This document shows positions 299-18,179 of a stretch of 64,000 nt of DNA, in pieces (position 1 is the stretch's first letter; each line of letters begins with the position of its first letter). The notes beneath the pieces were generated by a model. The model saw only the letters and a program-made list of their open reading frames with translations, made no database searches and was not told where the DNA came from. The stretch comes from Chloroflexota bacterium. GTDB lineage: Bacteria; Chloroflexota; Anaerolineae; Aggregatilineales; UBA3940. Location of the stretch: NCBI GenBank assembly GCA_010092885.1, contig JAADYX010000159.1, positions 27,554-91,553 on the forward strand, written 5' to 3'. Made by a program: the position numbers and the translations under genes.

Positions 299-1474
299 TT
301 AATCGTGCCAATCCGGCAGATCGCGGAGTGCATCATAGGCCGGCCGCAGCGTTGGCTCCGGAGTTCCCGGGAAGGCCAGACCCCACCAATACTGCTCGTC
401 TTGTTCGGTCCAATAGGGATCAGGTAGAAAGATCGTCGTCATAAGGCTGATCCACGGGCGCCAGTGCTCGTATGCATATAGGTACGCTCGCCTGAGATAG
501 TCAGCCTGCTGTTCTGGGGTGACGGCAAACCAAGCATACTCCGGATTGATCGGATCGGTCGTCCACCCCATTTCCAGGATGGCCATCTGCTTGCCTGCAT
601 CATCGTACTCAACCATGATGCGCCGGATGTTTTCCACATGCCGGAATGAGGCCCAATGCTGCCCGCCATATTCGGGTGTGTTTGCCACAACTTCCGGGGC
701 GATTTCAGGCGGCGCGGCATATCCGGGCGCGTTCACACCGAGCATATCAAAGTGCCGGTCGGCACCTGCCTCATACATGCCACGCAGGAATTCCTCATCA
801 GGCATGGCTTCCGGCAGGCCTGTCCCAGTTGGGGCCAAACCGGCTGAGATAATGATCGCATCAGGGTCAGCATTGCGAATGCCTCTCGCGCAGTGCGCCA
901 GCAGCCGGACATATTCTTCCGGGTTAGGGGGTTGCTCACCCCACTCACGGGCAAGATTGGGCTCGTTCCACACCTGGTATGCCTGGATGCGCCCTGTGTA
1001 GCGATCAGCCACAGCAAAGCAGAAATCCTCAAAGTCACGGTAGTCAGCAGGTGGCGCGTTTTCAAGCGGTGGCCATCCGCCGTTGGCCTGTGACCAGAAA
1101 GGTTGTCGATCCAACCGGACAAGCAGATTCAACCCGCGGGCTTCTGCGTCCGCCACAATGCGATCAGAGCGCCACCAATCGTAGGCATTTTTCTCGAGTG
1201 TTTCAATATCACGCCAGGCGAACTTCTGCTTGACCCAATCGAACGCCGGCAAATCAGCGATCAGATCCATATCACGCTGCGCAATGCCCTCGTCCCACCA
1301 CAGCGATGCATGTATCGCTGGCGAGGGGGAAGGCAGCACCACCTCAACCTCATCTGGGGCAAACTCAGCTGGATCAAGGGTTGGGGACGATGCAGGTATT
1401 TGAGCACACGCCGCAGCCATCCAAGTGACGACTGCGACGAGTCCTGTTCGGAGGAAGCCTTTTGCGGCAATCAC
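299..1474 (-). CDS. Clan GH-A type glycoside hydrolase, probable lipoprotein (array member 5)
   Basis: Track ORF 299..1630 trimmed. GTG at 1474 overlaps the TGA of the upstream gene (GTGA) and gives IAAKGFLRTGLVAVVTWMAAAC, a signal peptide with a lipobox-like AAAC. Motifs: YQVWNEPNLAREW (acid/base NEP) and AILEMGW (candidate nucleophile Glu). The GH family cannot be assigned by eye. Confidence 0.65.
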   Translation of the reverse strand: MIAAKGFLRTGLVAVVTWMAAACAQIPASSPTLDPAEFAPDEVEVVLPSPSPAIHASLWWDEGIAQRDMDLIADLPAFDWVKQKFAWRDIETLEKNAYDWWRSDRIVADAEARGLNLLVRLDRQPFWSQANGGWPPLENAPPADYRDFEDFCFAVADRYTGRIQAYQVWNEPNLAREWGEQPPNPEEYVRLLAHCARGIRNADPDAIIISAGLAPTGTGLPEAMPDEEFLRGMYEAGADRHFDMLGVNAPGYAAPPEIAPEVVANTPEYGGQHWASFRHVENIRRIMVEYDDAGKQMAILEMGWTTDPINPEYAWFAVTPEQQADYLRRAYLYAYEHWRPWISLMTTIFLPDPYWTEQDEQYWWGLAFPGTPEPTLRPAYDALRDLPDWHD

Positions 1475-2790
1475 GGCGGTTTGGGCATATCCCGCACGGC
1501 ATCGTAGGCTGGGCGAGGTTCGCCCGCCGGGTTCAGGATGCTGTACAGGGTGGTATCGTCCTGTGTATTGCCTCCGGCTTTTGGCGAATAGTCCAGATTG
1601 AACAGGAACGCCAGCCAGACAAAGCCCCAATCGTACATCTGCTGGTAGGCAGCGACAATATGCTCGGCCTGCTCCTCAAGCGAGTTGTCGTAGGCAAACT
1701 CAAAGCTCTCGCGCGGTTCGCCTTCCATACCCTCAACAGACGGCCAGCCGAACTCCGTAACGCACAGAGGCGTATCATAGCCTGAAGCGACGATCACGTC
1801 GCGATAGCCGCGCAGCGTGGAATAAAACGACCAGCTGGGGTGCGGGTTGGCGAACGGCCCTTGGAACACAGCAGAGGCATCTGTGAAGCCCGCATCATAG
1901 GCAACATCCGGTGGAATGTTGTACCCGTTGTGATGGGCACCCACGCAGTCCACGTAATCCAGCAGGCCCGCATCGATGAGTTCCTGCAGATACTGCACAT
2001 CATTGATGGCGTTGTTGCCATCGTTGACGCCCGTCGGCGCGAGGGCTGCACTGATGATAATGATATTGGGGTCGGCTTCACGGATGGCTTCCACAGCCGG
2101 GATGAGCAGTTCCATATACTCCTGCGAGCTCAACGGCCGGTCCGTCACCCACTCGCGGCGTAGATTGGGCTCATTCCAGATCTCGATGGCGTGGATCTGC
2201 CCGCTGTGGCGGCTGGCCAGTTCACCGACGTAGGCGGCATATGTGGCGGGGTCAGCCGGAGGGCGATCCCCTTCCCCTGAGGCGGGGCTGCTGGCCCATT
2301 CCGGTGCAGCAACCACATTCACCATTACGCGCACACCGCGTTGGCTGGCAGCGCCGAAGATATCGGCCAGCACATCCCAGTTGGCCTCACCCTGTACAGG
2401 CTCCAGATCAGCCCAACGCAGCTGCTGTTTGACCCAGTTCATACCCAGCTCTTCCACACGGTTGAGGGTATCCTCGGTGACCAGTTCAAGGCGGGCCTGA
2501 ATGCCATAGCCGAAGCTGTCATCCTCGCGGGGTGGAATGGTTGGCTCGATTTCCGTTTCGACGGGTTCAGCCGGTTCCTCCTGGACCAATGGGGTCGCGG
2601 TTGGAACCTCGATATCCGCACCCTGTGCGGCGGCCGTTTCCGTTGGTTCGACGACGGCACGCTCAAAGCCGCGGTTGAGGGCAAACCACACCCCCAGGAA
2701 TACGCAGGCCCCAACGACCAGCATCATGCCGGCCCATCCGAAGATCAGCAGTTGTGTTGTGCGTTTAGAGAGCTTCTGACGATTTGCCAT
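1471..2790 (-). CDS. Membrane-anchored clan GH-A type glycoside hydrolase (array member 4)
   Basis: Track ORF 1471..2886 trimmed to ATG 2790, because the longer form overlaps the upstream gene. The N-terminus MANRQKLSKRTTQLLIFGWAGMMLVVGACVFLGVWF is a signal anchor, and AGGGAATAGGA lies upstream. Motifs: IEIWNEPNLRREW, GAHHNGY, LCVTEFGWPS. Confidence 0.7.
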   Translation of the reverse strand: MANRQKLSKRTTQLLIFGWAGMMLVVGACVFLGVWFALNRGFERAVVEPTETAAAQGADIEVPTATPLVQEEPAEPVETEIEPTIPPREDDSFGYGIQARLELVTEDTLNRVEELGMNWVKQQLRWADLEPVQGEANWDVLADIFGAASQRGVRVMVNVVAAPEWASSPASGEGDRPPADPATYAAYVGELASRHSGQIHAIEIWNEPNLRREWVTDRPLSSQEYMELLIPAVEAIREADPNIIIISAALAPTGVNDGNNAINDVQYLQELIDAGLLDYVDCVGAHHNGYNIPPDVAYDAGFTDASAVFQGPFANPHPSWSFYSTLRGYRDVIVASGYDTPLCVTEFGWPSVEGMEGEPRESFEFAYDNSLEEQAEHIVAAYQQMYDWGFVWLAFLFNLDYSPKAGGNTQDDTTLYSILNPAGEPRPAYDAVRDMPKPP

Positions 2791-2806
2791 AATCCTATTC
2801 CCTGAC

Positions 2807-5713
2807 TCAGCCGTCTGCCAATGCTGCGCAGGCCGGGCAGGTTCCATCGGGACGGACGATCGAGTAGCCTGCCTGTGGATCGTCACCGGTCCACGTGGTG
2901 AAGCCCACGTTGAACACGATCATCATCCGCACCCATCCCAAGTTGCGTGAAAGGGTTTTCGCCTCACCCAGCCACTGGGCGTGTTCAGCAACCGTATTGT
3001 CGGCAGCCCAGGCGAAATTGGCGGGCAGCGTCCCGTAGCCCTGCGGTGAGAGGTAGCCCAGTTCCGTGATGCACACAGGGAGTACACCACCCAGGCCAAA
3101 GTAGTAGATCTCCAACGTGGGTTCGAAGTACCAGCTGTAGTGATCGCCTTCCGGGCGGCCCGAACGCACATACGGCGACGTCGTACCGGAGTTGTGGTGC
3201 ACACCAATGCAGTTCGCGTAGTTGGCAGCCCCTGCGGCGGCCAACCCCTGCACATACCGCTGGTCGCTCCAGGCGTTCACATCGTTGTCAAAACCGGTGG
3301 GCGCCAACGCGCCGATGATGACCATGGTGTTCGGGCTGACAGACTTGATCGCGTTAAAGCCCGGTGCCAGCATATTGTTCACATAGTCCGTCGGGCTGAT
3401 CTGACCGGCAGGCCATTCACGGTCGATGTTCATCTCGTTCCAAACTTCGATAGCGTCCGGCTGATAGGCAGCCACAGCTCCCAGAAACTCTGTGTACGAC
3501 GCGTAGTCGATGCTGTCCGGGTAAAGAGGCCCAGGGATGCTCAACAGAACCTTGAAGCCTGCACTGCGGCCCGCATTGGTGTATATCGCGGCAATGCCCG
3601 GATCAAGGCCAGGTGACCACTTGATCTGGAACTTCATCCAGTTCATGCCGGCCTGCTGCATCCTGTCGATATGGACCAGGGCATTGGGCACCTGACCACC
3701 CAACTCAAAGCCGCCGCCATCGCCGCCGCCCCCTCCGGCAGGTGGTGGGGCAGCGCTTTCCGGTGGCGGTGTGGCTGTCGGTGTCTCCTGGGCCGGCTGT
3801 TGATTGTCGGTGACAACCGGTGCTTCTTCCTCGTCTTCTGTTTCCTCTTCATCGGCGGCAATGCTCACCGTCACCGATCCGCGGTCAATGGTGCGGCCAC
3901 CGATCAGCTCACCGATGATGGTGTAGTTACCGGGGTCATCAGCCTGCCAGAAGAACGGCGAGCCCACCCCCGTCGTCTCGCTGACGACTGCTGAACCATC
4001 CTCACTCGTCACAGTCCACTGGAAAAGCAGTTGGCTTGGCAGGCTGGATACACTGCTTGACTTGAACTCGTTGATAGCTGTGACAAGCCCTTCATCGCGG
4101 CCTTCTGCCAGGAGATCATCCACCATCACACCGCCAATATGATAGCTCAATGCCATATCGAGACGTGCACGCACGGTGTTGGCGGTAACGATCCAGGTTT
4201 CCGCGTCGCCGGAGGAATACGTGTAGGCACCCGTCGTCTGATCGGGAGCCAGGTCTTCAGCTTCACCAGCCAGATAAAAGGCGAGCTCCGTGCCAGGCAG
4301 CACTGTCTCCGGCAGGCTGCCGCTGACCTCAACCTCGCCAAGCGGCTCAACCGCTGTATCAAAGGACATGGGTTCAACGGTGCTGCCGTCAACCACAGCA
4401 CTGGAGGCATTGGTCACAAAGAAGACTTTCTGGCGGGGCACATGGTCCACCGCGTAAGCCAGAGCCTGATAGGCTGGGCCGTCAATGCTGTACAGGCTGG
4501 GATCGAGGCCTATATCGACGGCAACAGCGCCTGCCGACCGGCCCACGGTTGCCCAATCATACCCGTCGCCTTCCGAGGTGGGAGGCAGCATCATAACAAG
4601 CAGACGGTTCTCGGCTTCAAAGGCTGTGCCCAGCTGCTCAACGAATGCACTAAACGCTTCACGGTCGGCTGCGGTCACGCCCTGGTAATTCAGAGCGATG
4701 CCGTTGTAGCCTCCATCGCGCATGATACCGATCAGATCACCGATGTGCAGCCGGGCCGCATCGGGATCGTTGATGATAGCGCCTGTCGCCGCACCATCGG
4801 CTTCAACTACCGGCAGTACGGCGTAGCCCGCGTCTAACTCCCATCCGGCGGTTAGCTCACCCTCGATGGCACCATCGGCGCGCAGGGTTAACCCCGGAAG
4901 AAGCAGCATATTCAACGCCGCTGCTGTGTCTTCATCGAGCGACTCACCCGCCTCAAGGGAGGTGGCGATCAGCGGGGTGAAGCGGCGTGTCTCGAAGACG
5001 ACGACATTGCCAATGACCGCATCAGCTGTGATGATGCCCTGCCCCGGATCCTTCTGCGACGGGACAAATACCCATTCATTTATGTTGGAGTCCCACGCAT
5101 AGAGATCGACAAGGCGGGGATTGGCACCGGCTGGCAGTGGCAACTCCACACCGACTGGTGTGTCCGTGTCCACGATATAGGCCGGTCCTTTCATCTCCAG
5201 CAGACTTGGGATCGAGGACCGGGCACCCTCAAAGCCGCGGCGGATCTCACCTTGCAAGAAGGTCTCGCGATCCACCACATCCGTGCAGACACGTGCTTGT
5301 GTCCCCGTGCTAAAGATCCTCAAACCGGACTCCGTACTGACAGCCTCACTGCCCGGCACTACGCTCCGGCAGGCCAGGCCGCCGCCCAACAGGTTGGGCA
5401 CCAGGAAGACGCCGCCCAATACAAGCCCAACCAGCACAACAAAGCCAATCGCAGCAGCCCCACCAATAAGCAAAGGTGTGGGCAAACCCGTATCGCTGTC
5501 TTGCGATGGTGTGTCTTCAACAGCGGGTACCGGCTCCGGATCCTCGGGTACGGCCTCTGAATGCTGTACAGTTGGTTCAGCCGGACCAACTTGGCTCAGC
5601 AGATCGTCCTCGTCATCAGGCACCTTTGCACTGGGCACCGTTGGTTCGCCGTATGCAGCGGAAAGATCTGCTGCATCGGTCTCTTCCCATCCATCATCGA
5701 AGAAGTCACTCAT
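2807..5713 (-). CDS. Large membrane-anchored multidomain protein (array member 3): acidic N-tail, TM, N-domain, GH18-like module with degenerate motif, PKD/Ig-like module, E/P-rich linker, C-terminal clan GH-A domain
   Basis: ATG 5713 (MSDFFDD...) is preceded by GGAGAGG and overlaps the upstream gene end by 8 nt. TM: LLIGGAAAIGFVVLVGLVLGGVFLV. GH18-like: GGYNGIALNYQGV ... ALSYHIGGVMVDDLLAEG. GH-A: FELGGQV, AIEVWNEMN (3428..3442), GVHHNSG, CITELGY (Glu codon 3062..3064). C-terminus: RPDGTCPAC. Confidence 0.75.
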   Translation of the reverse strand: MSDFFDDGWEETDAADLSAAYGEPTVPSAKVPDDEDDLLSQVGPAEPTVQHSEAVPEDPEPVPAVEDTPSQDSDTGLPTPLLIGGAAAIGFVVLVGLVLGGVFLVPNLLGGGLACRSVVPGSEAVSTESGLRIFSTGTQARVCTDVVDRETFLQGEIRRGFEGARSSIPSLLEMKGPAYIVDTDTPVGVELPLPAGANPRLVDLYAWDSNINEWVFVPSQKDPGQGIITADAVIGNVVVFETRRFTPLIATSLEAGESLDEDTAAALNMLLLPGLTLRADGAIEGELTAGWELDAGYAVLPVVEADGAATGAIINDPDAARLHIGDLIGIMRDGGYNGIALNYQGVTAADREAFSAFVEQLGTAFEAENRLLVMMLPPTSEGDGYDWATVGRSAGAVAVDIGLDPSLYSIDGPAYQALAYAVDHVPRQKVFFVTNASSAVVDGSTVEPMSFDTAVEPLGEVEVSGSLPETVLPGTELAFYLAGEAEDLAPDQTTGAYTYSSGDAETWIVTANTVRARLDMALSYHIGGVMVDDLLAEGRDEGLVTAINEFKSSSVSSLPSQLLFQWTVTSEDGSAVVSETTGVGSPFFWQADDPGNYTIIGELIGGRTIDRGSVTVSIAADEEETEDEEEAPVVTDNQQPAQETPTATPPPESAAPPPAGGGGGDGGGFELGGQVPNALVHIDRMQQAGMNWMKFQIKWSPGLDPGIAAIYTNAGRSAGFKVLLSIPGPLYPDSIDYASYTEFLGAVAAYQPDAIEVWNEMNIDREWPAGQISPTDYVNNMLAPGFNAIKSVSPNTMVIIGALAPTGFDNDVNAWSDQRYVQGLAAAGAANYANCIGVHHNSGTTSPYVRSGRPEGDHYSWYFEPTLEIYYFGLGGVLPVCITELGYLSPQGYGTLPANFAWAADNTVAEHAQWLGEAKTLSRNLGWVRMMIVFNVGFTTWTGDDPQAGYSIVRPDGTCPACAALADG

Positions 5714-8309
5714 ACGCCTCTCCACTCATCACACGGCCCAACGTCGAACACGCCGGGCACGAACCGTCCGGACGAACAATAGCGTACCCTGCCATAGGGT
5801 CATCGCCCCAATAAACGAAGTCCACGTTCCATACAATCAGCATGCGTACAGTACCAAGCTCCCGTGAATAGCGCGCGGCCTCGGCCAACCACTGGGCCTG
5901 ATCGCTAACGCGCGTGTTCCCTGCCCAATTGAAGCGTGCTGGCACCGCACCGTAGCCGTCCCCGCTGAGGTAACCCAACTCCGTAAAGCAGACAGGGCGG
6001 CCAAATGTACCACCATACAGCTCCACCATGCTACCGAAATACCAGCTGTAGTGCTGATAGCCCGGATCCGCGGGATGGCCTTCAGTTGCATAGGGCGATG
6101 TTGCACCCGCATTGAAGTGCACGCCAACACAGTCCATGTAGTTGGCAGCACCGGCCTGGGCCATCTGCTGCAGGTAGATCCAGTCGTCGCAGCCGCTGCC
6201 ATCCTTGGCACAGCCGCCCTCTGCAAAAAATGCACCTGTCGGGGCCAGCGCCCCCGAGATCACCATAATGTTGGGATTCACCCTTTTGATGCGATTGTAG
6301 GCTGGGGCAAGCATCTCTTCTACATAAGTCACACCATTGATCTGGCCGCGGGGCCACTCAAAAGCCAGATTGCCCTCGTTCCACACCTCAATGGCATCCG
6401 GACTGTAGTAGGCAACCCCTTCCACAAAGTCGAGGTAGCTGTCGAAGTTGATGCTATCCGGGTATTTGACCTGCCCGGCAATGCTGAGCAGCACCTTCAT
6501 GTTCTGCTCTTCACCTTGGGCCAGCAGCGGGAGCACCACATCCGGGGACATGCCGTCTTCCCAGGCAACCTGGAACTTGACCCAACGCATCCCGGCCTGC
6601 TTCATCTGTGCGGGATGGTAGATAACATGGTTGACCTGGCCGCCCAGTTCGAAGCGACCGGGGGCACTTGGCGGCACGACCGGGGGGGGCAGATTCGGGT
6701 TGACGGCTGCGGGTGTCGGTTGGTCGCCTCCCTCCAGATCGGGTGCACCAGCCACCACACCTTCGAAATCAGGGACTTGCACAACCACGTTACCACCGAC
6801 TTCCACCATCTGCTGCCCCTTGTCCAACACCAGTGAACCGGCAATGAGTTCAGCGGAAACAGCATAGGCACCATCGGCCTCCGGCTGCCAGATCAGCGGC
6901 TCGCCGACGGCAGCGGTTGTTTCAACCACAGTTGAGCCGCCGCTGCTGACTGACCAGCTCACCTGATAGTCAGGCGGAGCGCTGATCGGCTGTCCGGCTT
7001 TGAACGCGGTAACAGCCTCAGCGGCTTGGGGAGCAGCATCCTCCCCGAAAGCACCCGCCACAACGATCCCGGCGGTAGGCCATTCGGACATCGTGCCGAG
7101 GCGCTCCACAAGTGCCCCGGCGGTCATTACATGGACCTGCTGCTCGCCGTTTTCCGCATAGATAGTGAAAGACAGCTCGCCCGTGCTTGTATCATGGATA
7201 AGGTCAACAGCGCTACCTCCCAGGGTAAATCCGACCGGTTCACCTGGCTCCGGATTACGCAGCACCGGCTGAGTTTCTGGGAGCAAGGTCACATCACCCA
7301 GCAGCGACAGGGCCTCCTCATAACCGAGCGCGTAGCTGCTTCGATGCCAGGTCAGCGAGCTCATCGCGCTGACCACCGGGATTACCTTAGTGCGTTCCAC
7401 TTGCCCGGTCATCTGCTGAAGCATCAGCAGCGCGCCGGTCTCAGAAGCAGGCAGATCGACGAAAACATAATCAACGGCCCGTGCAAGGCTGTCATCGACG
7501 TGCTCACTGTGGATGCGAATGCCGGTCGGTATATCCAACGCAGCCACTACATCGTGGAGCCCTTCAGCATCGCCGTGGACATCGAATACGACTGCGGGAA
7601 GATCGGCTTCCTCTATTGCACTGACGGCCGCCTGAGTACGCTGCTCTAAGAGGCCGGCGGTTGTCTGGCTGGAAAGGACTGGCATTATTCGGGTGCTTGA
7701 CTGTACAGAGGGTAGTGCACTCGCACCGAGCTCGAAATCTTCGATCAGCAGGAGGTTAAGAGCCACAAGCGTACCGGCACCGGGCAGTTCGTCCGATATG
7801 GTGGATGCGCCCAACATCTGCGGAAACTCCCCAACCTCAAAGAGGGCAATTGGATCGTTGTGCGCACGGGCACGCACCTGCGCGATTTGGGGCTGTGAGG
7901 TCGACGGTACAAACACCCAGGTCGCACGGCGCTGATCCCAGCGGTAGACATCATAGATGCCATTTGGATCGGGCATGGGGAAAACGACCTCCACCGTGCC
8001 AGCGGTACGCACCGATACGCCTATACTGGCTGGGGTCAGATGTGCCGGGAGAGCGCGAGTGGCTTCCGGTGTTAGCAAATCCGTATGGGTTTCAGCTCGG
8101 ACGCGCGCCGGTGCGTCACCAACCAGCAGCACGCTCAGACCGTCCTCCAAACGCAGAAGCGGTGTCTGTGGGGTCAGGCGCGGGGGGCGGGTCCCCAGCG
8201 CAGCAGCAATGCCAAAGCCAACCATATAGACCACAATGACCATCACAATCAGGTGGCCCAGCGTTAGCCGGGGGGAGGCGAATCCCCCCGGCAGTACGGA
8301 TCGAAGCAT
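5706..8309 (-). CDS. Large membrane-anchored multidomain protein (array member 2), paralog of members 1 and 3
   Basis: ATG 8309 lies 2 nt after the upstream stop. Signal anchor: LGHLIVMVIVVYMVGFGIAAALG. It shares the blocks YRWD..WVFVPS, the PKD-like SWSVSSGGSTVVETT..YAVSAELI, FELGGQV, AIEVWNEGN, MDCVGVHFN, CFTELGYLSG and RPDGSCPAC with its neighbours. Confidence 0.75.
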   Translation of the reverse strand: MLRSVLPGGFASPRLTLGHLIVMVIVVYMVGFGIAAALGTRPPRLTPQTPLLRLEDGLSVLLVGDAPARVRAETHTDLLTPEATRALPAHLTPASIGVSVRTAGTVEVVFPMPDPNGIYDVYRWDQRRATWVFVPSTSQPQIAQVRARAHNDPIALFEVGEFPQMLGASTISDELPGAGTLVALNLLLIEDFELGASALPSVQSSTRIMPVLSSQTTAGLLEQRTQAAVSAIEEADLPAVVFDVHGDAEGLHDVVAALDIPTGIRIHSEHVDDSLARAVDYVFVDLPASETGALLMLQQMTGQVERTKVIPVVSAMSSLTWHRSSYALGYEEALSLLGDVTLLPETQPVLRNPEPGEPVGFTLGGSAVDLIHDTSTGELSFTIYAENGEQQVHVMTAGALVERLGTMSEWPTAGIVVAGAFGEDAAPQAAEAVTAFKAGQPISAPPDYQVSWSVSSGGSTVVETTAAVGEPLIWQPEADGAYAVSAELIAGSLVLDKGQQMVEVGGNVVVQVPDFEGVVAGAPDLEGGDQPTPAAVNPNLPPPVVPPSAPGRFELGGQVNHVIYHPAQMKQAGMRWVKFQVAWEDGMSPDVVLPLLAQGEEQNMKVLLSIAGQVKYPDSINFDSYLDFVEGVAYYSPDAIEVWNEGNLAFEWPRGQINGVTYVEEMLAPAYNRIKRVNPNIMVISGALAPTGAFFAEGGCAKDGSGCDDWIYLQQMAQAGAANYMDCVGVHFNAGATSPYATEGHPADPGYQHYSWYFGSMVELYGGTFGRPVCFTELGYLSGDGYGAVPARFNWAGNTRVSDQAQWLAEAARYSRELGTVRMLIVWNVDFVYWGDDPMAGYAIVRPDGSCPACSTLGRVMSGEAYE

Positions 8310-8311
8310 AG

Positions 8312-11107
8312 TCAGGGGGCTACAGCAGCCAGGGCATCACAGGCCGGGCAGGAGCCATCCGGGCGGATCATGGCGTAACCGGCCTGCGGATCCGCGCCAT
8401 AGACCTGAAAATCTACATTGAAAATGATCATCATCCGGACACGCCCACTTTGTGACGACAGGACGGCTGCTTCAGCAAGCCAGGCGGCCTGCTGCTGAAC
8501 CGTCGTGTTTGAGGCCCATCCGAAGGCAGAGGGCAGAGAGTCAAACCCTTCGCCGCTCAGATAGCCCAGTTCGGTGAAGCACAGCGGCTTACCGAACTTA
8601 TCGTAGCGGCTGATCATGCCATAGAAATAGCGCGTCGGGTACTCGTCACGCGGGTCTCCCGTGCGCTGGCTCGGCGGAATGATGCCCTCGTTGTAGTGCA
8701 CCCCCATGCAGTCCATGTAGTTGGCAGCACCGGCAGCAGCCATCTGATCGACGTACACATCATCATTGCAGCCTGTGATGGTACTGTCCCCCACAGTAAT
8801 GGTCGAACATCCGCCCGGGAAAGCACCGGTCGGGGTGGGCGCACCCGCAATCACCAGGACGTTGGGGTTCGCTGCTTTGATCGCTTCATAAGCTGGCGCG
8901 AGCATGTTGGTCACATAGCTTTCACCACTGATCTGATCGGCTGGCCACTCGCGGTCGAAGTTCATCTCATTCCACACTTCGATGGCATCGGGGCCGAGGG
9001 CGGCCACCCCCGCCAGGAACTGCGTGTAAGCGGCATAGTCGATGCTGTCCGGATACAGTGGACCGGGGATGCTCAACAGCACCTTGAAGCCGCGCGCACG
9101 CGCGTCGTTGATCCGACCGGCAACTGCACTTGGCGGGTCAGCCGGAGACCACTTGTGCTGGAACTTGACCCAGGTCATCCCGGTGGCGGCCATGAGATCC
9201 GGGTTAGCGAAGCTGTGTGTTTGGCCACCCAGCTCAAATTCGCCTGCCGCGATGGTGCCCGTCGGCGGTGCCGGAGTGGGCTGTTCGGTGGGCTCTTCTA
9301 CTTCCTCGGGTGGGAGTTCAGCCTGCTCATCACCGGCTTCGTCCTCCTCTTCCGGCTCAGCCGGTTCAGGCACCGAACCGGCTACATCCAGGGTAAGTGA
9401 CCCGATGGCGGTTTGCTGATCGCCGGTTTGCACCCGCGCCGCGATCTCGTATGTACCCGTATCGCTGAACACTTGCCAGAGCACCTGCATCAGCGTGAGA
9501 TCCCCGCTTTGTTCCGCCACAACGGTACCATCACCCGTTGAGACATTCCATACCAAGCTGATCGGGGTGGGGCCTTCAACTTCACCCCCGGTGAGGAACG
9601 CGTTGAGCCCGTTGATCACAGTTGGCGCAGCATATGGTTCACCCGCGCCCTCTACCGCGACCGCACCCAGACCGTAGGCCCGGGCCCACTCCAGCCGCTG
9701 CTGAAGCGCCTGCGCGGAGCTGAAGTAGACGATGTGGCTGCCTTCATTGTCCGAATAAGTGAGGTAGTTCATGCCGAGTGCAGGATCAAATCCCATCGAC
9801 TCAACCTCGCCCTGCAGACGCACAGCGAAATCCGCGTTGACCGGCACCGGCGCTCCAGGCGTGAGGTAGCCTTCAATGGCGGTCACCTCACCGAATAAAG
9901 CAGAAGCTTCCTCAAAGGTTAGCGGCTGGGCTCCTGTGTCGGACAGATCAACAGTGTACGCACTGACCAACAACCCGGTGCGGCTGCGCTCTACATGGGC
10001 CACCAACGTATCGAGTGCCTCACCACTGGCATACACTGCTGGATCGGCCCCGGGCGCCAGCCACACCCGATCCGTGGTGCGCCCCAGTGCAGCCAGATCA
10101 TAGGAGTTCATCGAGTCCGCGTAGACGATCACGCCCAGCGTCTTGGACTCAGCGGCCAAATCCTCCGCCAGCGCCGCGACAAACGCCGCATAGCCGGATC
10201 CTGGTGAGAAATCCAGGACAAGACCGTTGTAGCCGGCAGCCAATGCAACCAGTGCGTCATGGAGATTGTCTACGCCCTCGTAGCTGACAAGGGCACGGTT
10301 GGTTACGACAGGCGTGATGCGTGTACCAGATGCTTCGACAGGTGTGCCGTTCAGCTGGCCACTGCCATCGACTGTCACGCCGCGCGGCATGGCCAATCCA
10401 TAATCCGCATCGGTCTGACCACCATTTGCGGGGATGACCTCTGCGGCCTCAGCCGCCTCTGGCTGCGTGCGCACGGCCATCACCGCGAGGTTCTGACTGG
10501 CATCAAACACGATGCTGCCCGTCGCTGCATCAACAGTGCTGGGCACGAACTGCCACTCACCGTCCTGCCAGGCATACAGATCAACAAGGGCCAGCGGCTC
10601 AGCGCCATTTGGGATCGCCATCAGCCCGGTGAGGGAGCCGTCGCCGCGCGTGGTCACCTCATAGATGGGGCTCAATGGTTCGAGCCGGGCAGGCAGCACG
10701 CTGTATGCGGCTGTCCACTGACGGCCAGCCTGCTCACTCACGAACAGTTCACGGGGAACCGTCTCCACGCGGACTCGGGCACTGCCCTCCTCAATGCGCA
10801 GCAGCAGACCATCCGGATGGGTTATCTCCGGCGAGGCTGCATTGAGTGCCGTCGCGCGTCCACCACCGAGCAGAGCGACAGCAGCCACCACTACACCGAC
10901 CACAACAGCCAATCCGCCCACACCAGCAACTGGCAGAAGCCATTTGGGCATACCACGCGCGTCGTCATTGGCGGGCATTTCAGAGGCGGGTACTTCAGAC
11001 TGCTCCAGCTCAGGCACATCTGCTGGTTCAATGATGGGGGTTTCCTGCTGTTCGGGGACTGAGTCCAAGATGTCCTCAGCGATGTCGTTGTCACGATCGT
11101 CGCTCAT
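8312..11107 (-). CDS. Large membrane-anchored multidomain protein (array member 1, first gene of the array)
   Basis: ATG 11107 is preceded by GAGGAG. Acidic N-tail, then TM WLLPVAGVGGLAVVVGVVVAAVALL. GH18-like: AAGYNGLVLDFSPGS ... RLEWARAYGLGAVAVEG. PKD-like: LVWNVSTGDGTVV..GTYEIAARV. An E/P-rich linker follows. GH-A: FELGGQT, AIEVWNEMN, MGVHYNEG, CFTELGYLSG, RPDGSCPAC. Confidence 0.75.
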   Translation of the reverse strand: MSDDRDNDIAEDILDSVPEQQETPIIEPADVPELEQSEVPASEMPANDDARGMPKWLLPVAGVGGLAVVVGVVVAAVALLGGGRATALNAASPEITHPDGLLLRIEEGSARVRVETVPRELFVSEQAGRQWTAAYSVLPARLEPLSPIYEVTTRGDGSLTGLMAIPNGAEPLALVDLYAWQDGEWQFVPSTVDAATGSIVFDASQNLAVMAVRTQPEAAEAAEVIPANGGQTDADYGLAMPRGVTVDGSGQLNGTPVEASGTRITPVVTNRALVSYEGVDNLHDALVALAAGYNGLVLDFSPGSGYAAFVAALAEDLAAESKTLGVIVYADSMNSYDLAALGRTTDRVWLAPGADPAVYASGEALDTLVAHVERSRTGLLVSAYTVDLSDTGAQPLTFEEASALFGEVTAIEGYLTPGAPVPVNADFAVRLQGEVESMGFDPALGMNYLTYSDNEGSHIVYFSSAQALQQRLEWARAYGLGAVAVEGAGEPYAAPTVINGLNAFLTGGEVEGPTPISLVWNVSTGDGTVVAEQSGDLTLMQVLWQVFSDTGTYEIAARVQTGDQQTAIGSLTLDVAGSVPEPAEPEEEDEAGDEQAELPPEEVEEPTEQPTPAPPTGTIAAGEFELGGQTHSFANPDLMAATGMTWVKFQHKWSPADPPSAVAGRINDARARGFKVLLSIPGPLYPDSIDYAAYTQFLAGVAALGPDAIEVWNEMNFDREWPADQISGESYVTNMLAPAYEAIKAANPNVLVIAGAPTPTGAFPGGCSTITVGDSTITGCNDDVYVDQMAAAGAANYMDCMGVHYNEGIIPPSQRTGDPRDEYPTRYFYGMISRYDKFGKPLCFTELGYLSGEGFDSLPSAFGWASNTTVQQQAAWLAEAAVLSSQSGRVRMMIIFNVDFQVYGADPQAGYAMIRPDGSCPACDALAAVAP

Positions 11108-11213: not shown

Positions 11214-11666
11214 CTACGCCTGCCCTTCGATCCGCCACTGCATGATATCCAACATCGAGTGGGGCAGCCCGGTGTAGTCCAGCAACGACTGCCACAGGGT
11301 CGTGTGCGGTTCGGTGAGCGGATGCTGTTGGCGCAGGTGCTCGTAGGCTTCACGCAGCCCCATGCCCTGAGAGACCAGATAGGCAAGGACCACAGTTGCT
11401 GAGCGGCTCATACCAGCCCAACACATGACCAATACCCGGCCCTCATTGTCGATTTCACCCTGCATAATGGCCAAAAAATCATCGAAGGTCTCAGCGGATA
11501 TGGGCCTTCCATCCGGGATGGGGCGGTCCACCACAGGGATGTCCTGTACACCGCTGAGGGGTTCCTCATGCAGATAGAGGATCCGTGTGATGCCAAACTC
11601 AGACAGGCGCGCTTTTGCGGCATTCACATCACCGATGTAGACCTGATTGGTGACTTTGCTGATCAT
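11214..11666 (-). CDS. Dual-specificity (Cys-based) phosphatase family protein
   Basis: 150 aa. The active-site signature VLVMCWAGMSRSATVVLAYL matches CX5R(S/T). Its ATG overlaps the TGA of the upstream GT2 gene (ATGA). Confidence 0.8.
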   Translation of the reverse strand: MISKVTNQVYIGDVNAAKARLSEFGITRILYLHEEPLSGVQDIPVVDRPIPDGRPISAETFDDFLAIMQGEIDNEGRVLVMCWAGMSRSATVVLAYLVSQGMGLREAYEHLRQQHPLTEPHTTLWQSLLDYTGLPHSMLDIMQWRIEGQA

Positions 11667-12409
11667 CGCGACCGAGCCCGATGCTTGACTGCGAGACGCA
11701 GTGTATCGGCAATGGTACGGGTGACACGCATCTTGGTCTCCGTCGGTTTCAGATCATAGCGAAGAACCAGCGGAACTTCGCCAAAGCGCGTTTCGGGTAG
11801 GCGGCTCACCTGAAGAAGGATCTCGACCATGCAGGCGAACCCCTCTTCTGTGATGAAGTCATCGCCAAAGCTGTCATATGCCTCTTGTAGTGTTTCCATC
11901 CGGTAGGCGCGATAACCACACGAATAATCGCGAATCCCTTGAATGGGCAGAATGGTCTGGAAGAGGACGCTCATCACTCGGCTGTACAAACGGCGCATGA
12001 ACGGCACACCGTGGACTTCCGCCCCGGGTTGGAATCGTGATGCCACAACCACATCATGACCCTGTGCTTCAATGAGATGGCGCATGGCGAGCATATGTTG
12101 GGGGGGTTGGGTATTGTCTGCATCCATCGTAACGATGATATCACCCGATTGCGCGTGGTCGAGTGCTCGCCGCAATCCCGTCTGAATGGCCTGGCTGAGC
12201 CCTCTGTTCTGCGGATGATTGGCCAGCTCAACCCACGGATGCATGCTGCTGAAGTCCGATACGACATCGGCAGTAGCATCGGCACTGCCATCGTTGACGA
12301 TGATCACATGCATATCAGGGATGTCCGCAGCACGGACATGCGCTAACTTCTCAAGCAGCGGGGGAAGGGCTTCTTCCTCATTATAAGCCGGCAGAACAAC
12401 GTAAATCAT
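11663..12409 (-). CDS. Family 2 glycosyltransferase, polyprenyl-phosphate sugar synthase-like (Dpm1/GtrB type)
   Basis: MIYVVLPAYNEEEALPPLLEKL, IVNDGSADAT, VTMDADNTQPP (DxD). The track start at 12412 is a TTG; the ATG at 12409 is preferred. Confidence 0.75.
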   Translation of the reverse strand: MIYVVLPAYNEEEALPPLLEKLAHVRAADIPDMHVIIVNDGSADATADVVSDFSSMHPWVELANHPQNRGLSQAIQTGLRRALDHAQSGDIIVTMDADNTQPPQHMLAMRHLIEAQGHDVVVASRFQPGAEVHGVPFMRRLYSRVMSVLFQTILPIQGIRDYSCGYRAYRMETLQEAYDSFGDDFITEEGFACMVEILLQVSRLPETRFGEVPLVLRYDLKPTETKMRVTRTIADTLRLAVKHRARSR

Positions 12410-12433
12410 CAAGGTGGTTCCTGGACACGGATT

Positions 12434-13738: not shown

Positions 13739-15925
13739 ATGCCTGATAGGAGTTTTATTTTGTCTTCTGCGCTATTGGATGGATTGAACGACGCGCAACG
13801 TGTGGCTGTGACAGCCCCAGACGGACCGGTGCTCATCCTCGCGGGGCCGGGCAGCGGCAAAACACGGGTTCTAACCCGTCGTTTGGCCTACCTCATAGAA
13901 GAGCAGGGTGTACCCCCTTGGCAGATCGTTGCGGTGACATTTACCAATAAAGCCGCCCGTGAGATCCGCCATCGGGTTGACACTGCAACCGGAGAGAGCC
14001 TTGGTGAGGCAATGATCGGCACCTTCCACGCGATTTGTGCCCGGCTGCTGCGTATCGAAGCTGACCAACACCTGCCGCTGTCGTCAGACTATGTGATCTT
14101 CGATGCCTCGGATCAGATCGCGCTGATGAAGACCGTGTTGACGGAGGATATGAACCTCGACCCCAAGAAGTATCCACCACGTCGCATGCTCAATTCTGTC
14201 TCGCGGGCCAAGAACAACCTGATCACGCCTGCGGAGTATCGGGCCGAGAGCTACCTTGAGGAACTGGCTGGGCGTGCCTACGAGCGCTATCAGGAGCACC
14301 TGACACGCAACAACGCGGTCGATTTCGATGATCTGCTAATGCATATGGCTCTTCTGCTGCGGGACAATGATGCCGTTCGCCATAAGTACCAACGACGCTT
14401 CACCCACATTCTGGTAGACGAGTTCCAAGATACCAACATGACACAGTACGAGCTGGTGAAGCTGCTGGCTGCACCGCAGAATAACCTGTTCTGTGTGGGG
14501 GACGAAGATCAGTCGATTTACCGGTGGCGCGGCGCGGATTATCGCAATGTGCGGCGACTGCGTGAGGATTACCCGACCATCCAGACCATTCTATTGGAGC
14601 AGAACTACCGCTCCACGCAAACGATACTTGACGCCTCTGTGGCCGTGATCGATGGGAACCCGCATCGCACTCAAAAGGGCTTGTTCACCGAGGCAGGCCA
14701 AGGCGAGCAGATCCTGATCTATGAAGCACAGGAGGAGAGCGACGAAGCGCAGTTCATTGTTGATACGATTGCCCAACTCGTTAAGGCTAGCGAAGTCGAA
14801 CCCGGCGAGTGTGCGATCATGTACCGTACCAATGCTCAGTCCCGCGTGCTGGAAGAAACATTTGTCCGCGCAGGGCTGCCTTACCGCTTGGTGGGCGGCA
14901 CGCGATTCTACAGCCGCCGGGAGATTAAAGATCTGCTCGCCTATCTGCGTATCATCCACAATCCGGACGATCAGGTCAGCCTGCTGCGCGCGATCAACAC
15001 GCCCACCCGCGGCATCGGGGCGAAGACGCTCGAAGGCCTCGAACAGTGGGCCGAACGATCCAACCTGACGCTTTACGGTGCGCTGCGCCGCATCGCCGAT
15101 GATCCCGATCACACGCCGTTTGGGGGGCGTGCGCTGAACGCACTCGGCGGATTTATGGAACTGCTAGATGGCTGGCGGAGCGTTGCCGAAGAGACACCAC
15201 TGCATCAACTTCTACGGCTGATCATCGATGAAGTGGGCTACTATGACTACATCGTTGACGGCACTGAGCAGGGCGACGACCGCTGGGATAACGTGGAAGA
15301 GCTGTTGGAGCTGGTCACTGAATTCCAGACTGTACCCTTACAGGACTTCCTTACGGAAGTGGCATTGGTCGCAGATGTGGACGATCTACCAACCAGCCCA
15401 AACGCGCCCACCTTGATGACCCTGCACGCCGCCAAAGGTCTGGAGTTCGACGTGGTGTTTATCACCGGGCTGGAGGAGGGTGTACTGCCACACAAACGGT
15501 CTGAGGATGAGCCGGAAGCTCTGCAAGAGGAGCGTCGTCTGCTTTATGTTGGTATGACACGGGCGCGCAAACGCCTGTATCTACTGTACACGTTCAAACG
15601 CATGGTCTTCGGTGAGAGATTGTTGAACACGCCTTCTCGCTTCCTGGAAGCAATCCCCGATGACTTGCTGGTCACGCCGCGCAGCGGATATCGGCGTTCT
15701 GGCTACCGGCGAGCCACCACATGGAGCAGCGCGCCACCGCGCACGGATGAGGTCACACTACAGTTTCGTGCCGGTCAGCGTGTCAGCCATCCCCAATTTG
15801 GCGAGGGCATTGTGATGCAGACTATCGACCGTGGGACGGACACAGAGTTAACCATCGTGTTCGAGGATGTGGGCCCTAAACGGTTGATGGTGCGCTACGC
15901 CAACCTGACCCTGCTCGAGGGCTAA
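13739..15925 (+). CDS. pcrA: ATP-dependent DNA helicase PcrA/UvrD family
   Basis: LLDGLNDAQRVAV, AGPGSGKTRVLT (Walker A), VDEFQDTN, MTLHAAKGLEFDVVF, YVGMTRARKRL. A TTG start about 8 codons downstream (after AGGAG) is an alternative. Confidence 0.9.
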   Translation: MPDRSFILSSALLDGLNDAQRVAVTAPDGPVLILAGPGSGKTRVLTRRLAYLIEEQGVPPWQIVAVTFTNKAAREIRHRVDTATGESLGEAMIGTFHAICARLLRIEADQHLPLSSDYVIFDASDQIALMKTVLTEDMNLDPKKYPPRRMLNSVSRAKNNLITPAEYRAESYLEELAGRAYERYQEHLTRNNAVDFDDLLMHMALLLRDNDAVRHKYQRRFTHILVDEFQDTNMTQYELVKLLAAPQNNLFCVGDEDQSIYRWRGADYRNVRRLREDYPTIQTILLEQNYRSTQTILDASVAVIDGNPHRTQKGLFTEAGQGEQILIYEAQEESDEAQFIVDTIAQLVKASEVEPGECAIMYRTNAQSRVLEETFVRAGLPYRLVGGTRFYSRREIKDLLAYLRIIHNPDDQVSLLRAINTPTRGIGAKTLEGLEQWAERSNLTLYGALRRIADDPDHTPFGGRALNALGGFMELLDGWRSVAEETPLHQLLRLIIDEVGYYDYIVDGTEQGDDRWDNVEELLELVTEFQTVPLQDFLTEVALVADVDDLPTSPNAPTLMTLHAAKGLEFDVVFITGLEEGVLPHKRSEDEPEALQEERRLLYVGMTRARKRLYLLYTFKRMVFGERLLNTPSRFLEAIPDDLLVTPRSGYRRSGYRRATTWSSAPPRTDEVTLQFRAGQRVSHPQFGEGIVMQTIDRGTDTELTIVFEDVGPKRLMVRYANLTLLEG

Positions 15926-16029
15926 CGATTTTCTAGCCATTCATCTTGCGACCATGATGGATTCGCAAGTATAGTTAGACTACCAACTGGGGGGCACAGC
16001 TGTTCCCACAGGTATAACTTATCATCTCC

Positions 16030-16053
16030 GCGGGCTTGCCAGCCCGCTCTTTT
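16030..16053 (+). terminator. Intrinsic terminator after pcrA
   Basis: GCGGGC (16030..16035), loop ttgcca, GCCCGC (16042..16047), then TCTTTT. Confidence 0.6.
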
Positions 16054-16069
16054 AGCCACTGAGGATTAC

Positions 16070-18175
16070 GTGAGTCCAACCGACGAGATTAAGGCCCGTA
16101 TCGACATCGTCGACTATATTGGGGGCCTTGTTAAGCTCCAAAAGACCGGGAAAAACTACAAGGGTCTGTGCCCCTTCCACGGGGAGAAAACGCCGTCCTT
16201 TGTGGTCTTTCCGCATACCGGTACCTGGCGCTGTTTTGGATGCGGCCGTGGGGGAGACGTGTTCAACTTTGCCATGGAGTATGAGGGGTGGGACTTCCGT
16301 GCGGCGTTGAGCGCACTGGCCGATTATGCGGGTGTTGAACTGGCACCGCTTACACCCCAGCAGGAAGAACAGCAGCAGATCGACGAACATTTGCTCGCTC
16401 TGCTGCGCGAGGCCGCCGAATACTACAACCGGCTCATGCTCTATGAAGACCACACCGCCCACATCCGCGATTATCTCTTGCAGCAGCGGGGCCTGTCTTA
16501 CGATGCTGTGATGGACTTCCAGATCGGTTATGCGCCGGATGGGTGGCAGATCACCTCTGACTATCTGCTTGGCCTAGGCTATAACCGCGACGACCTAATC
16601 GAGGCGGGGCTGTTGGTCGTCAACGACCGGGGGCACAGCTATGATCGCTTCCGCAACCGGGTGATGATTCCCATCCGAAACCCCAAAGGCGAGGTCGTGG
16701 GGTTCGGAGCACGAGCACTCGAAAAGGACGCCAAACCCAAGTACCTCAACTCGCCGCAGAACCGCCTGTTTGACAAGAGCAGCCTGCTCTACGGCTTTTC
16801 GCTGGCCCGGCGTGCGATCCGCGAGACGGAGACTGCCGTTATCGTTGAGGGTTACATGGACGTGATACAGGCACACCAGGCGGGCTTCCGCAATGTGGTC
16901 GCACAGATGGGTACTGCACTCACAAGCGATCAGTTCCGGCTGCTGTCGCGCTATGCCACCCGCCTGATCCTGGCCCTTGATGCAGACGCCGCCGGTCAGA
17001 TGGCAACCGATCGCGGCCTTGAGACCATTGAAAAAGCATCACAGCAGGCCGCCGAAGAAGTAGCAGAACGCGGCGGCTGGGGCTTCGACAGCGCCGAACA
17101 CGAGCAGCATATCAGGCGCAGCCTGGAATTCGATCCCTCCGGCATGGTGCGCTATGAGAACGATCTCGGGTTTGATATCCGGGTGGTGGTCATGCCGGAA
17201 GGCAAGGACCCGGATGACATTATCCGTTCGGACCCCGACTGGTGGGACCAGCTGATCAACGGCGCGCTGCCCATCGTGACCTACGTCATGAACAAGGCTG
17301 TGGAAGGCCAGGATCTTAAGGATCCAAAGGTCAAGAGTGCCATTGTCGCCCGCCTGATGCCCTTGATCAACAACGTGGGCAATACGGTTGAGCGTGCGCA
17401 CTACCGGCAGCAGTTAGCGCGGCTGCTCAAAGTACCCGAGTCGGCACTGCTTAGCAAACCGTCGGAACAATCGCAGCAAAAGAAAAAACGGTCCCGCCAA
17501 CAGCAGAAGCAAGGCGAACCTTCAGACGTACTCCCCATAGAGGCGAACGACACAGCGGTTGAGGCCCTTCTTACCCCGACCGCATCGCGTGAGGCCTTTC
17601 TTATCGCTGCACTGATCAAAGAGCCCGCTGCCATCTACCGCGTGAACCGCATTATGGCGGAAACGATGAACTTCGACGATGTACTCTTCGGCGAGGACTA
17701 TCAAGCTGCCGTGCAGACTTTGGGCGACAGTCTGGCTGAGTATCTGGTGCCTGCTGACTTCAACCACCTCGACCATCAGGCTGTCTTCCTCGCCTGGGAA
17801 ATCGCGTTGGGCCAGGACGAGATCGACCACATCGAAGCCCTCAAAGAGCAGCTGGATCACACGCTGCGCCAGCAGGTGGATGCATGGCTGGCGCAGCCGC
17901 TGTATGCTCTGCGTGAGGGTATTCGCCCCTTGGATACAAGACTCAACCCCGAGCGGGTTTTTGAGGAAGTGGTGCAAGGCGCGCTTGAACTGCGGGATAG
18001 ACGGTTGAACACCTATTATCAGGAACTTGTAGCGATCTTGGAGGATATGGATAATGGAGGAAACAGTGCGGCACTCCTCGACCATCTGGTTACCATTAAA
18101 GCGATACGTACGGCACGCCAGAGGCTGCTGGAGGCGAATCACCTGTACAGACCTGCCGCGCGTTTGAGCGAGTGA
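16070..18175 (+). CDS. dnaG: DNA primase
   Basis: GTG start after GAGGA. Zinc finger [30 protein letters not shown]; Toprim block [11 protein letters not shown] and LALDADAAG. Confidence 0.92.
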
Positions 18176-18179
18176 TGGT

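Follow-up and report, generated by a model that had tools for sequence, protein, structure and literature searches.

A pseudo-GH18 barrel as a probable non-catalytic accessory module of membrane-anchored glycosidases in Chloroflexota

The stretch of DNA analysed here, hereafter the window, comprises 64,000 nucleotides of a Chloroflexota bacterium genome (assembly GCA_010092885.1, contig JAADYX010000159.1, positions 27,554 to 91,553 of the forward strand), and all window coordinates are counted from its first nucleotide. The open reading frame (ORF) list places five co-directional genes on the minus strand between positions 299 and 11107, all of which encode a homologous C-terminal domain of glycoside hydrolase clan A (GH-A) with WNE(M/G/P)N and (T/L)E(L/F/M)G motifs. 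The three large proteins, members 1, 2 and 3, further have in common a hydrophobic anchor, an all-beta N-terminal domain (N-domain), a GH18-like module, an immunoglobulin (Ig)-like domain and a low-complexity linker. We report that this module is related to GH18 chitinase-type barrels, that it lacks the catalytic glutamate in all three proteins, and that the remainder of the GH18 pocket has been dismantled across a large bacterial family. We conclude that the pseudo-GH18 barrel probably serves, without catalysing a reaction of its own, as an accessory module of a membrane-anchored glycosidase located outside the cytoplasm; any specific ligand would have to be proposed with much lower confidence.

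Results

The module is related to GH18 barrels of the YaaH/SleL/YdhD clade

A first-pass annotation of the window had read the middle module of the large proteins as a GH18/YaaH-type TIM barrel, and sequence searches and structure comparison agree on this reading. A phmmer search of the PDB with member 3 retrieved the GH18 structure 4q6t (E = 7.6e-9), with GINLDFE aligned to GIALNYQ, as well as YdhD (3cz8) and YaaH/SleL (4s3k). A profile built from 35 family sequences matched SleL/YaaH/YdhD-type bacterial GH18 structures with E-values from 8.6e-36 to 3.8e-20, including 5jh8 (8.6e-36), YdhD (9e-33), 4q6t (8e-30) and SleL (6e-26). An AlphaFold2 model of residues 118-621 of member 3 (504 residues), based on an alignment of 124 sequences and covering the N-domain, the barrel and the Ig-like domain, reached a mean predicted local distance difference test (pLDDT) score of 95.1 and a predicted template-modelling (pTM) score of 0.93. 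Foldseek placed this model next to SleL (4s3k, 8e-17), 5jh8 (1e-16) and 4q6t (1e-14), with TMt up to 0.70 and a probability of 1.0 for SleL, 5jh8, 4wiw, 4q6t and YdhD, chi-lectins being lower in the list. Comparison with PF00704, suggested in the same annotation, gave a more divided answer, as the Pfam model itself remained below its curated gathering cut-off of 29.6 bits for member 3 (24.8 bits, E = 2e-5) and member 1 (13.5 bits) and had no match in member 2 in the Pfam scan, the assignment being carried by the phmmer, family-profile, model and Foldseek results above. A PF00704 match at E ≤ 0.001 was nevertheless obtained for 26 of the 35 family members, and an NCBIfam scan returned nothing relevant. 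Taken together, profiles and predicted structure assign the module to the YaaH/SleL/YdhD clade of GH18 TIM barrels, with homology far beyond chance.

The barrel is somewhat larger than first delimited: the span 4091-4933 falls inside it, with strand 1 starting near residue 252 and helix 8 ending near residue 555 of member 3 (~4055-4984). The C-terminal blocks described for members 3 and 1 were found at 4100-4153 (ALSYHIGGVMVDDLLAEG) and 9647-9697 (RLEWARAYGLGAVAVEG). At the catalytic signature, NGIALNYQ in member 3 and NGLVLDFS in member 1 (10205-10228, residues 294-301) stand exactly where they had been reported, and PAVVFDVH of member 2, correctly read, lies at 7575-7598, one codon away from the 7572-7595 given originally. 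Since DSSP assigns strand 4 of the model to residues 342-347, Q348 sits at the C-terminal end of that strand, at the predicted position of the GH18 acid/base glutamate. The glutamate is missing in all three paralogs, as had been noted, and is replaced by Q348, S301 and H245 in members 3, 1 and 2, respectively.

The GH18 pocket is lost throughout a large family

Word-indexed homolog searches yielded 3 and then 14 relatives only, and the family came to light when 1.84 billion cluster representatives were searched exhaustively with HMMER, giving 3501 matches at E ≤ 1e-3 and at least 319 at E ≤ 1e-30. Nearly all of the top 150 matches cover both the N-domain and the barrel. Residues were then counted in 165 near-complete modules aligned to the canonical GH18 protein P0003 (DIDYE). 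The glutamate column contains Arg in 85 modules, Gln in 28, Ala in 12, Gly in 9, Ser in 6, Pro in 6, Asp in 4 and Glu in 3, and D-x-E can be read in a single module, whose lineage has a deletion that leaves the assignment of this column ambiguous. Every module (165/165) has a gap in place of the strand-6 YDYHW block, the strand-8 Trp column is mostly charged or polar (Glu 31, Arg 29, Asp 24, Gln 16), the strand-7 Tyr-Gly pair has become Leu or Arg followed by Ser, and the strand-1 Tyr is replaced by Ala, Ser or Gly. Profile-to-PDB alignments are consistent with the loss of these strand-6, strand-7, strand-8 and strand-1 pocket residues. A subgroup (P0002, P0005, P0022, P0044, P0054, P0089, P0128, P0135 and P0141) reads G-I-D-L-E-Y-(S/A), its D-x-E lying two residues nearer the N-terminal end of strand 4, with Ser or Ala at the canonical glutamate position.

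GH18 catalysis is substrate-assisted, with the glutamate as acid/base, and a Tyr-Asp pair and a Trp shape the -1 subsite. Because all of these residues are gone, the alignment indicates that the canonical GH18 reaction is impossible in these modules, and classical recognition of N-acetylglucosamine (GlcNAc) appears unlikely. The latter point bears on the analogy with eukaryotic chi-lectins drawn in the first-pass annotation, in which a GH18-type sugar cleft would bind GlcNAc polymers (peptidoglycan, chitin-like or sheath glycans) and thereby target the GH-A domain. The fold without its glutamate does recall Ym1 and YKL-40, both among the structural matches, the aspartate position (346 in member 3) is kept in most of the family, and SleL/YaaH, the closest clade, is active on fragments of peptidoglycan (PMC10653849 and references therein). 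However, the -1 subsite that such binding would use is deleted or replaced at strands 6, 8, 7 and 1, and the Pfam scan found neither LysM nor any other known wall-binding domain in the window proteins. The chi-lectin analogy and the GlcNAc-binding role built on it hence find little support in the pocket, and we regard this explanation as quite unlikely. The module is still best read as a non-catalytic accessory, with the qualification that its ligand, if any, is not to be deduced from GH18 precedent.

The members of the family carry hypothetical-protein annotations. Among them is P0004, 'MAG: hypothetical protein ACFB51_20520 [Anaerolineae bacterium]', to which member 3 is 100% identical and for which NCBI places the start four codons downstream of that of the longest ORF (968 residues). 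The five named records are all from Chloroflexota or Anaerolineae, so that the family is so far named from Chloroflexota only. One IMG record, P0175 (in the cluster of P0015), is labelled 'spore germination protein YaaH', an activity that its sequence cannot support.

Loss of the glutamate predates the triplication of the large gene

The absence of the glutamate from three paralogs had been taken as three independent losses under selection. By best hits, the window genes have clean positional orthologs in two other genomes (L009 and L010), members 1, 2 and 3 corresponding to the first, second and third large gene. None of these orthologs has the glutamate: their motifs read LDF-(D/A/S) for member 1, LDYG or FDVH for member 2 and (D/N)Y(Q/P) for member 3. 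Because both the orthologs and the family column lack the glutamate, the three paralogs inherited a Glu-less module instead of losing the residue three times, and independent loss under selection was rejected. The comparison thus places the loss at the base of the family, before the triplication of the large gene.

Identity between orthologs is 28-56% for the GH18-like module, 32-52% for the N-domain and 30-65% for the Ig-like domain, values that are clearly exceeded by those of the GH-A domain (54-80%). As the module resembles the N-domain and the Ig-like domain in this respect, it is kept as a folded domain and evolves like an accessory domain, unlike an enzyme. In member 1, NGLVLDFS is followed by a lineage-specific deletion of 5 residues, and in member 3 the Asp of D-x-E has become Asn (N346). 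The member 2 module lacks YDW, DP..Y and many other family-conserved residues and has the lowest ortholog identity (28-43%). Its barrel is the most eroded copy, in which ~15 residues have been deleted behind strand 4 and helix 4 is incomplete.

These data also speak to the idea that the barrel is still an enzyme, working through non-canonical residues (the retained Asp with another acid) or through non-hydrolytic chemistry. The aspartate position is widely kept, acidic residues often follow strand 7 (Glu 58, Asp 55) and strand 8 (Asp 78), and conservation suffices for a model with a pLDDT of 95. Against this, the glutamate column accepts Arg, Gln, Ala, Gly, Ser, Pro and His and, in orthologs, a deletion, unlike a catalytic position, the neighbouring GH-A domain evolves far more slowly than the module, and the Asp itself is Asn in member 3. 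We consider a surviving enzymatic activity highly improbable.

An Arg-centred motif in the mainstream family

In the mainstream family, the commonest substitution of the glutamate is accompanied by other changes. A basic residue occupies the end of strand 3 in 58 of the 85 modules with Arg at the glutamate column, compared with 7 of the 28 with Gln and 15 of the 52 others, and the strongest mutual-information partner of this column is the adjacent Trp/Tyr column. The complete R-N-W...D-Y-R set is present in 47 of the 165 modules. No acidic partner of the Arg was enriched in the co-variation analysis of the 165 modules; on this ground, which is weak evidence only, a salt-bridge plug role for the substituted Arg was rejected. 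These patterns hint at a new, possibly anion-binding site, with the caveat that the co-variation is confounded by phylogeny.

In the window clade (the window proteins, L009, L010 and P0155-P0159), the strand-3 loop is 4 residues shorter, RNW is missing and the glutamate column holds mostly Gln, Pro, Gly, Ser or His, not Arg, indicating that the RNW...DYR site was lost again in this clade. A neo-functional site, formed by R-N-W at the end of strand 3 and D-Y-R at the end of strand 4 and recognising a different, probably anionic envelope polymer, is therefore a tentative explanation, in which the window copies would be relaxed derivatives. It draws on the frequency of the full set, on the pairing of Arg with a basic strand-3 residue and on the partner columns described above, and is weakened by the phylogenetic confounding and by the missing RNW and Arg of the window clade, to whose proteins it would apply weakly, if at all. 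A bolder version, which we consider unlikely, sees a GH18 peptidoglycan-type hydrolase rebuilt as a recognition module, the Glu-to-Arg change and the RNW loop recognising an anionic wall polymer and the conserved three-gene GH-A cassette acting as a dedicated wall-polysaccharide remodelling machine; it takes the host bacteria to be filamentous monoderms and appeals to the position of the cassette, which sometimes adjoins the dcw cluster.

The partner GH-A domain has an intact catalytic pair

The inactive-looking module had been described as fused to an intact hydrolase, and this description holds as far as the sequence and the predicted structure can tell. The AlphaFold2 model of the member 3 GH-A domain is a (beta/alpha)8 barrel (pLDDT 95.7), which Foldseek places closest to GH39 (5jvk, 1e-10, TMq 0.69) and then to GH10, GH5, GH26 and GH113. 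In this model, N100-E101 comes after strand 4 (residues 95-98), and T224-E225 lies at the end of strand 7 (221-226). Both pairs, corresponding to E764 and E888 of member 3, are nearly invariant in 73 sequences, indicating that the catalytic pair is intact. None of the three large proteins reaches a curated Pfam GH family threshold (best E = 0.0036-0.019), and the best PDB sequence match of the domain has an E-value of 0.016. The large proteins and their homologs invariably carry a C-terminal RPDG(S/T)CPAC sequence (C-x-x-C; 2810-2900, 5730-5790 and 8321-8400), which could be a redox site, a metal site or a disulfide. The two small paralogs lack CPAC and end in RPAY(D/E)A(L/V)RD(M/L)P.

Architecture and proposed role of the large proteins

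The architecture of member 3 (Table 1) suggests a type-II-anchored envelope glycosidase, in which an acidic tail, a predicted transmembrane (TM) helix, a beta-sandwich, the dead barrel, an Ig-like domain, a linker and the GH-A domain follow one another. The large proteins are expected to lie outside the cytoplasm. The N-domain, the dead barrel and the Ig-like domain are predicted to pack as one rigid stalk that would space the GH-A head out into the cell envelope, the head being tethered by a flexible acidic/Pro-rich linker of ~40 residues. The stalk may also touch the wall with low specificity. Because these three folded N-terminal domains are predicted as a rigid unit (pTM 0.93), a stalk or wall-contact role is the most likely one for the module, and the substrate of the GH-A head is presumably the organism's own envelope or wall polysaccharide.

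The N-domain of member 3 has no Pfam match at E ≤ 10. The Ig/PKD-like label of the following beta domain is based on a weak PKD match in the homolog P0002 and in 2 of the 35 family members. The linkers of the three large paralogs are mutually unalignable. The most hydrophobic 19-residue segment of member 3, AAIGFVVLVGLVLGGVFLV, has a mean Kyte-Doolittle value of 2.76. The tails preceding the TM helix are long and extremely rich in Asp, Glu and Pro in member 3 (5465-5725) and member 1 (10870-11107), unlike member 2, which has almost no acidic tail.

Table 1 Features of the window genes and coordinates of related arrays
Feature	Coordinates	Strand	Remarks
Member 1 gene	8312-11107	-	931 residues; pseudo-GH18 module ~9587-10468
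Member 2 gene	5706-8309	-	867 residues; pseudo-GH18 module ~6993-7829
Member 3 gene	2807-5725	-	972 residues from GTG
Small GH-A paralog A	1471-2886	-	471 residues as listed; TM anchor and GH-A domain
Small GH-A paralog B	299-1630	-	443 residues; GH-A hidden Markov model E = 7e-122
Member 3, predicted single TM anchor	5390-5464	-	residues ~88-112; putative topology
Member 3, N-terminal all-beta domain	4985-5374	-	residues 118-247; family-specific; DSSP strands at model residues 2-129
Member 3, pseudo-GH18 (beta/alpha)8 barrel with alpha+beta insertion	4055-4984	-	residues 248-557
Member 3, strand-4 motif NGIALNYQ	4682-4705	-	residues 341-348; N346-Y347-Q348 replaces GH18 D-x-E
Member 3, Ig/PKD-like beta domain	3848-4054	-	residues 558-626; DSSP all-beta at model residues 450-503
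Member 3, low-complexity acidic/Pro/Gly-rich linker	3737-3847	-	residues 627-663; AADEEETEDEEEAPVV...PPPAGGGGGDGGG
Member 3, clan GH-A domain	2810-3736	-	residues 664-972; C-terminal CPAC
Member 3, WNEMN, E764	3434-3436 (codon)	-	GH-A domain
Member 3, ITELGY, E888	3062-3064 (codon)	-	GH-A domain
Five-gene array, window	299-11107	-	
Array, L009	4172-15362		
Array, L010	4348-15510		
Array, L016	5579-15406		
Cassette, L012	8001-13613		distant genome
Cassette, L013	8001-14802		distant genome

The genes are tightly packed. The end of member 2 and the start of member 3 overlap by 20 nucleotides (5706-5725), and the stop of member 1 and the start of member 2 are 2 nucleotides apart (8309-8312). Since the listed start of the 471-residue paralog A overlaps the end of member 3 by 80 nucleotides (2807-2886), its true start is probably further downstream. 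Paralog A is the only one to pass the PF00150 cut-off (E = 1.1e-8; 35.4 bits for a cut-off of 23.5).

The GH-A genes form a conserved cassette

Two other genomes (L009 and L010/L011) have the five genes in this order, and L016 has a similar array with a shorter first gene. The more distant genomes L012 and L013 carry a single large gene followed by orthologs of both small genes, with 45-65% identity; across L009, L010, L012 and L013, identity is 45-56% for paralog A and 53-65% for paralog B. Because distant genomes have one large gene with both small orthologs, the ancestral unit is one large and two small GH-A genes, the large gene having been triplicated in the window clade. The genes of these cassettes all carry hypothetical annotations. 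The payload at the C-terminus of the N-domain/pseudo-GH18/Ig core is a GH-A domain in about half of the large proteins, and NBR1-type Ig, SH3 or CARDB in others.

This conservation could reflect a protein-protein or regulatory function, in which the dead barrel would dock or regulate either the co-encoded small GH-A enzymes or the large paralogs. Degenerate LytM factors such as EnvC and NlpD activate amidases and offer an analogy. One to three large genes and two small ones co-occur strictly and in fixed order in distant genomes, as such a partnership would lead one to expect. On the other side, the same core also bears non-enzymatic payloads (NBR1-Ig, SH3), and we hold a regulatory function to be very unlikely.

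In L012, mraZ-rsmH-(ORF)-ftsI-murE of the dcw cluster (13818-19072) follows directly on the cassette, and an LCP (LytR_cpsA_psr) gene is located upstream; the arrangement, seen at this single locus, may point to a connection with cell-wall growth or division. Envelope-related neighbours elsewhere include LysM-CAP in L013, M23/bactofilin in L014 and RodZ in L016. In the window, member 1 is directly preceded on its strand (11214-12412) by a GT2 glycosyltransferase gene (PF00535, E = 7e-26) and a dual-specificity phosphatase gene (DSPc, E = 4e-15), which overlap by 4 nucleotides.

Discussion

Our results support a dead GH18 barrel serving as an accessory domain of anchored glycosidases, and several points weigh against this conclusion. 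The evidence on binding and location is indirect, consisting of sequence and predicted structure. Of the 165 modules, 137 retain the middle Asp of D-x-E, and the YDW and DP..Y loop motifs at the top of the barrel are conserved in the family, which, read from the alignment, leaves room for a functional site. The genomic links to the envelope are anecdotal, as the neighbours differ from one to the other of the six loci, and the GT2 and phosphatase genes upstream of the window array are not conserved in L009 and L010, where a methyltransferase gene is found instead.

Animals and plants have well-known pseudo-GH18 proteins. In our full-text literature searches, we came across no bacterial pseudo-GH18 family of this kind, a large one in which the entire GH18 pocket is dismantled and, in most members, an Arg-centred motif has taken its place. 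Automatic pipelines miss the module or, in one case, name it 'spore germination protein YaaH', a label that would wrongly imply chitinase or cortex-lytic activity in metagenome surveys of Chloroflexota. The analysis also brings to light three uncharacterised clan GH-A enzymes encoded in a conserved cassette, which is likely tied to the poorly understood cell envelope of Anaerolineae.

Comparison with known systems

By profile and structure, the nearest relatives of the module are SleL/YaaH, YdhD and related GH18 proteins (4s3k, 4s3j, 3cz8, 5jh8, 4q6t and 4wiw). The module resembles them in the scaffold motifs VxP..N, Y.G(I/V).(L/I)D(F/Y), YD(W/Y)..(L/I)G..(A/V)D, R.K(I/L) and Y.L.G, and in having the same alpha+beta insertion after strand 7. 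In these relatives, D-F-E is accompanied by (M)xYD in strand 6, YG in strand 7 and, in most cases, a Trp in strand 8, all of which are missing from the window proteins. SleL/YaaH combine N-terminal LysM repeats with an active GH18 domain (DFE), whereas the window proteins have neither LysM, as judged by Pfam, nor DFE. Unlike this group, they read N-Y-Q, D-F-S or D-V-H, are TM-anchored and are fused to a GH-A domain.

The chi-lectins (Ym1, YKL-40/CHI3L1, BRP39 and SI-CLP/CHID1), among the structural and profile matches, are alike in being GH18 barrels with a substituted catalytic glutamate. They keep an aromatic sugar-binding cleft and are stand-alone secreted proteins. By contrast, the window module has had its cleft residues deleted or exchanged and forms an internal domain of a multidomain bacterial glycosidase that is apparently membrane-anchored, and the commonest substitute of the glutamate in its family is Arg. 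The GH-A domain, for its part, resembles the clan GH-A families GH39, GH10, GH5, GH26 and GH113 in its (beta/alpha)8 fold, in the N-E acid/base that follows strand 4 and in the nucleophile Glu that closes strand 7, and differs from them in remaining below the curated thresholds and in the family-specific C-P-A-C of the large proteins.

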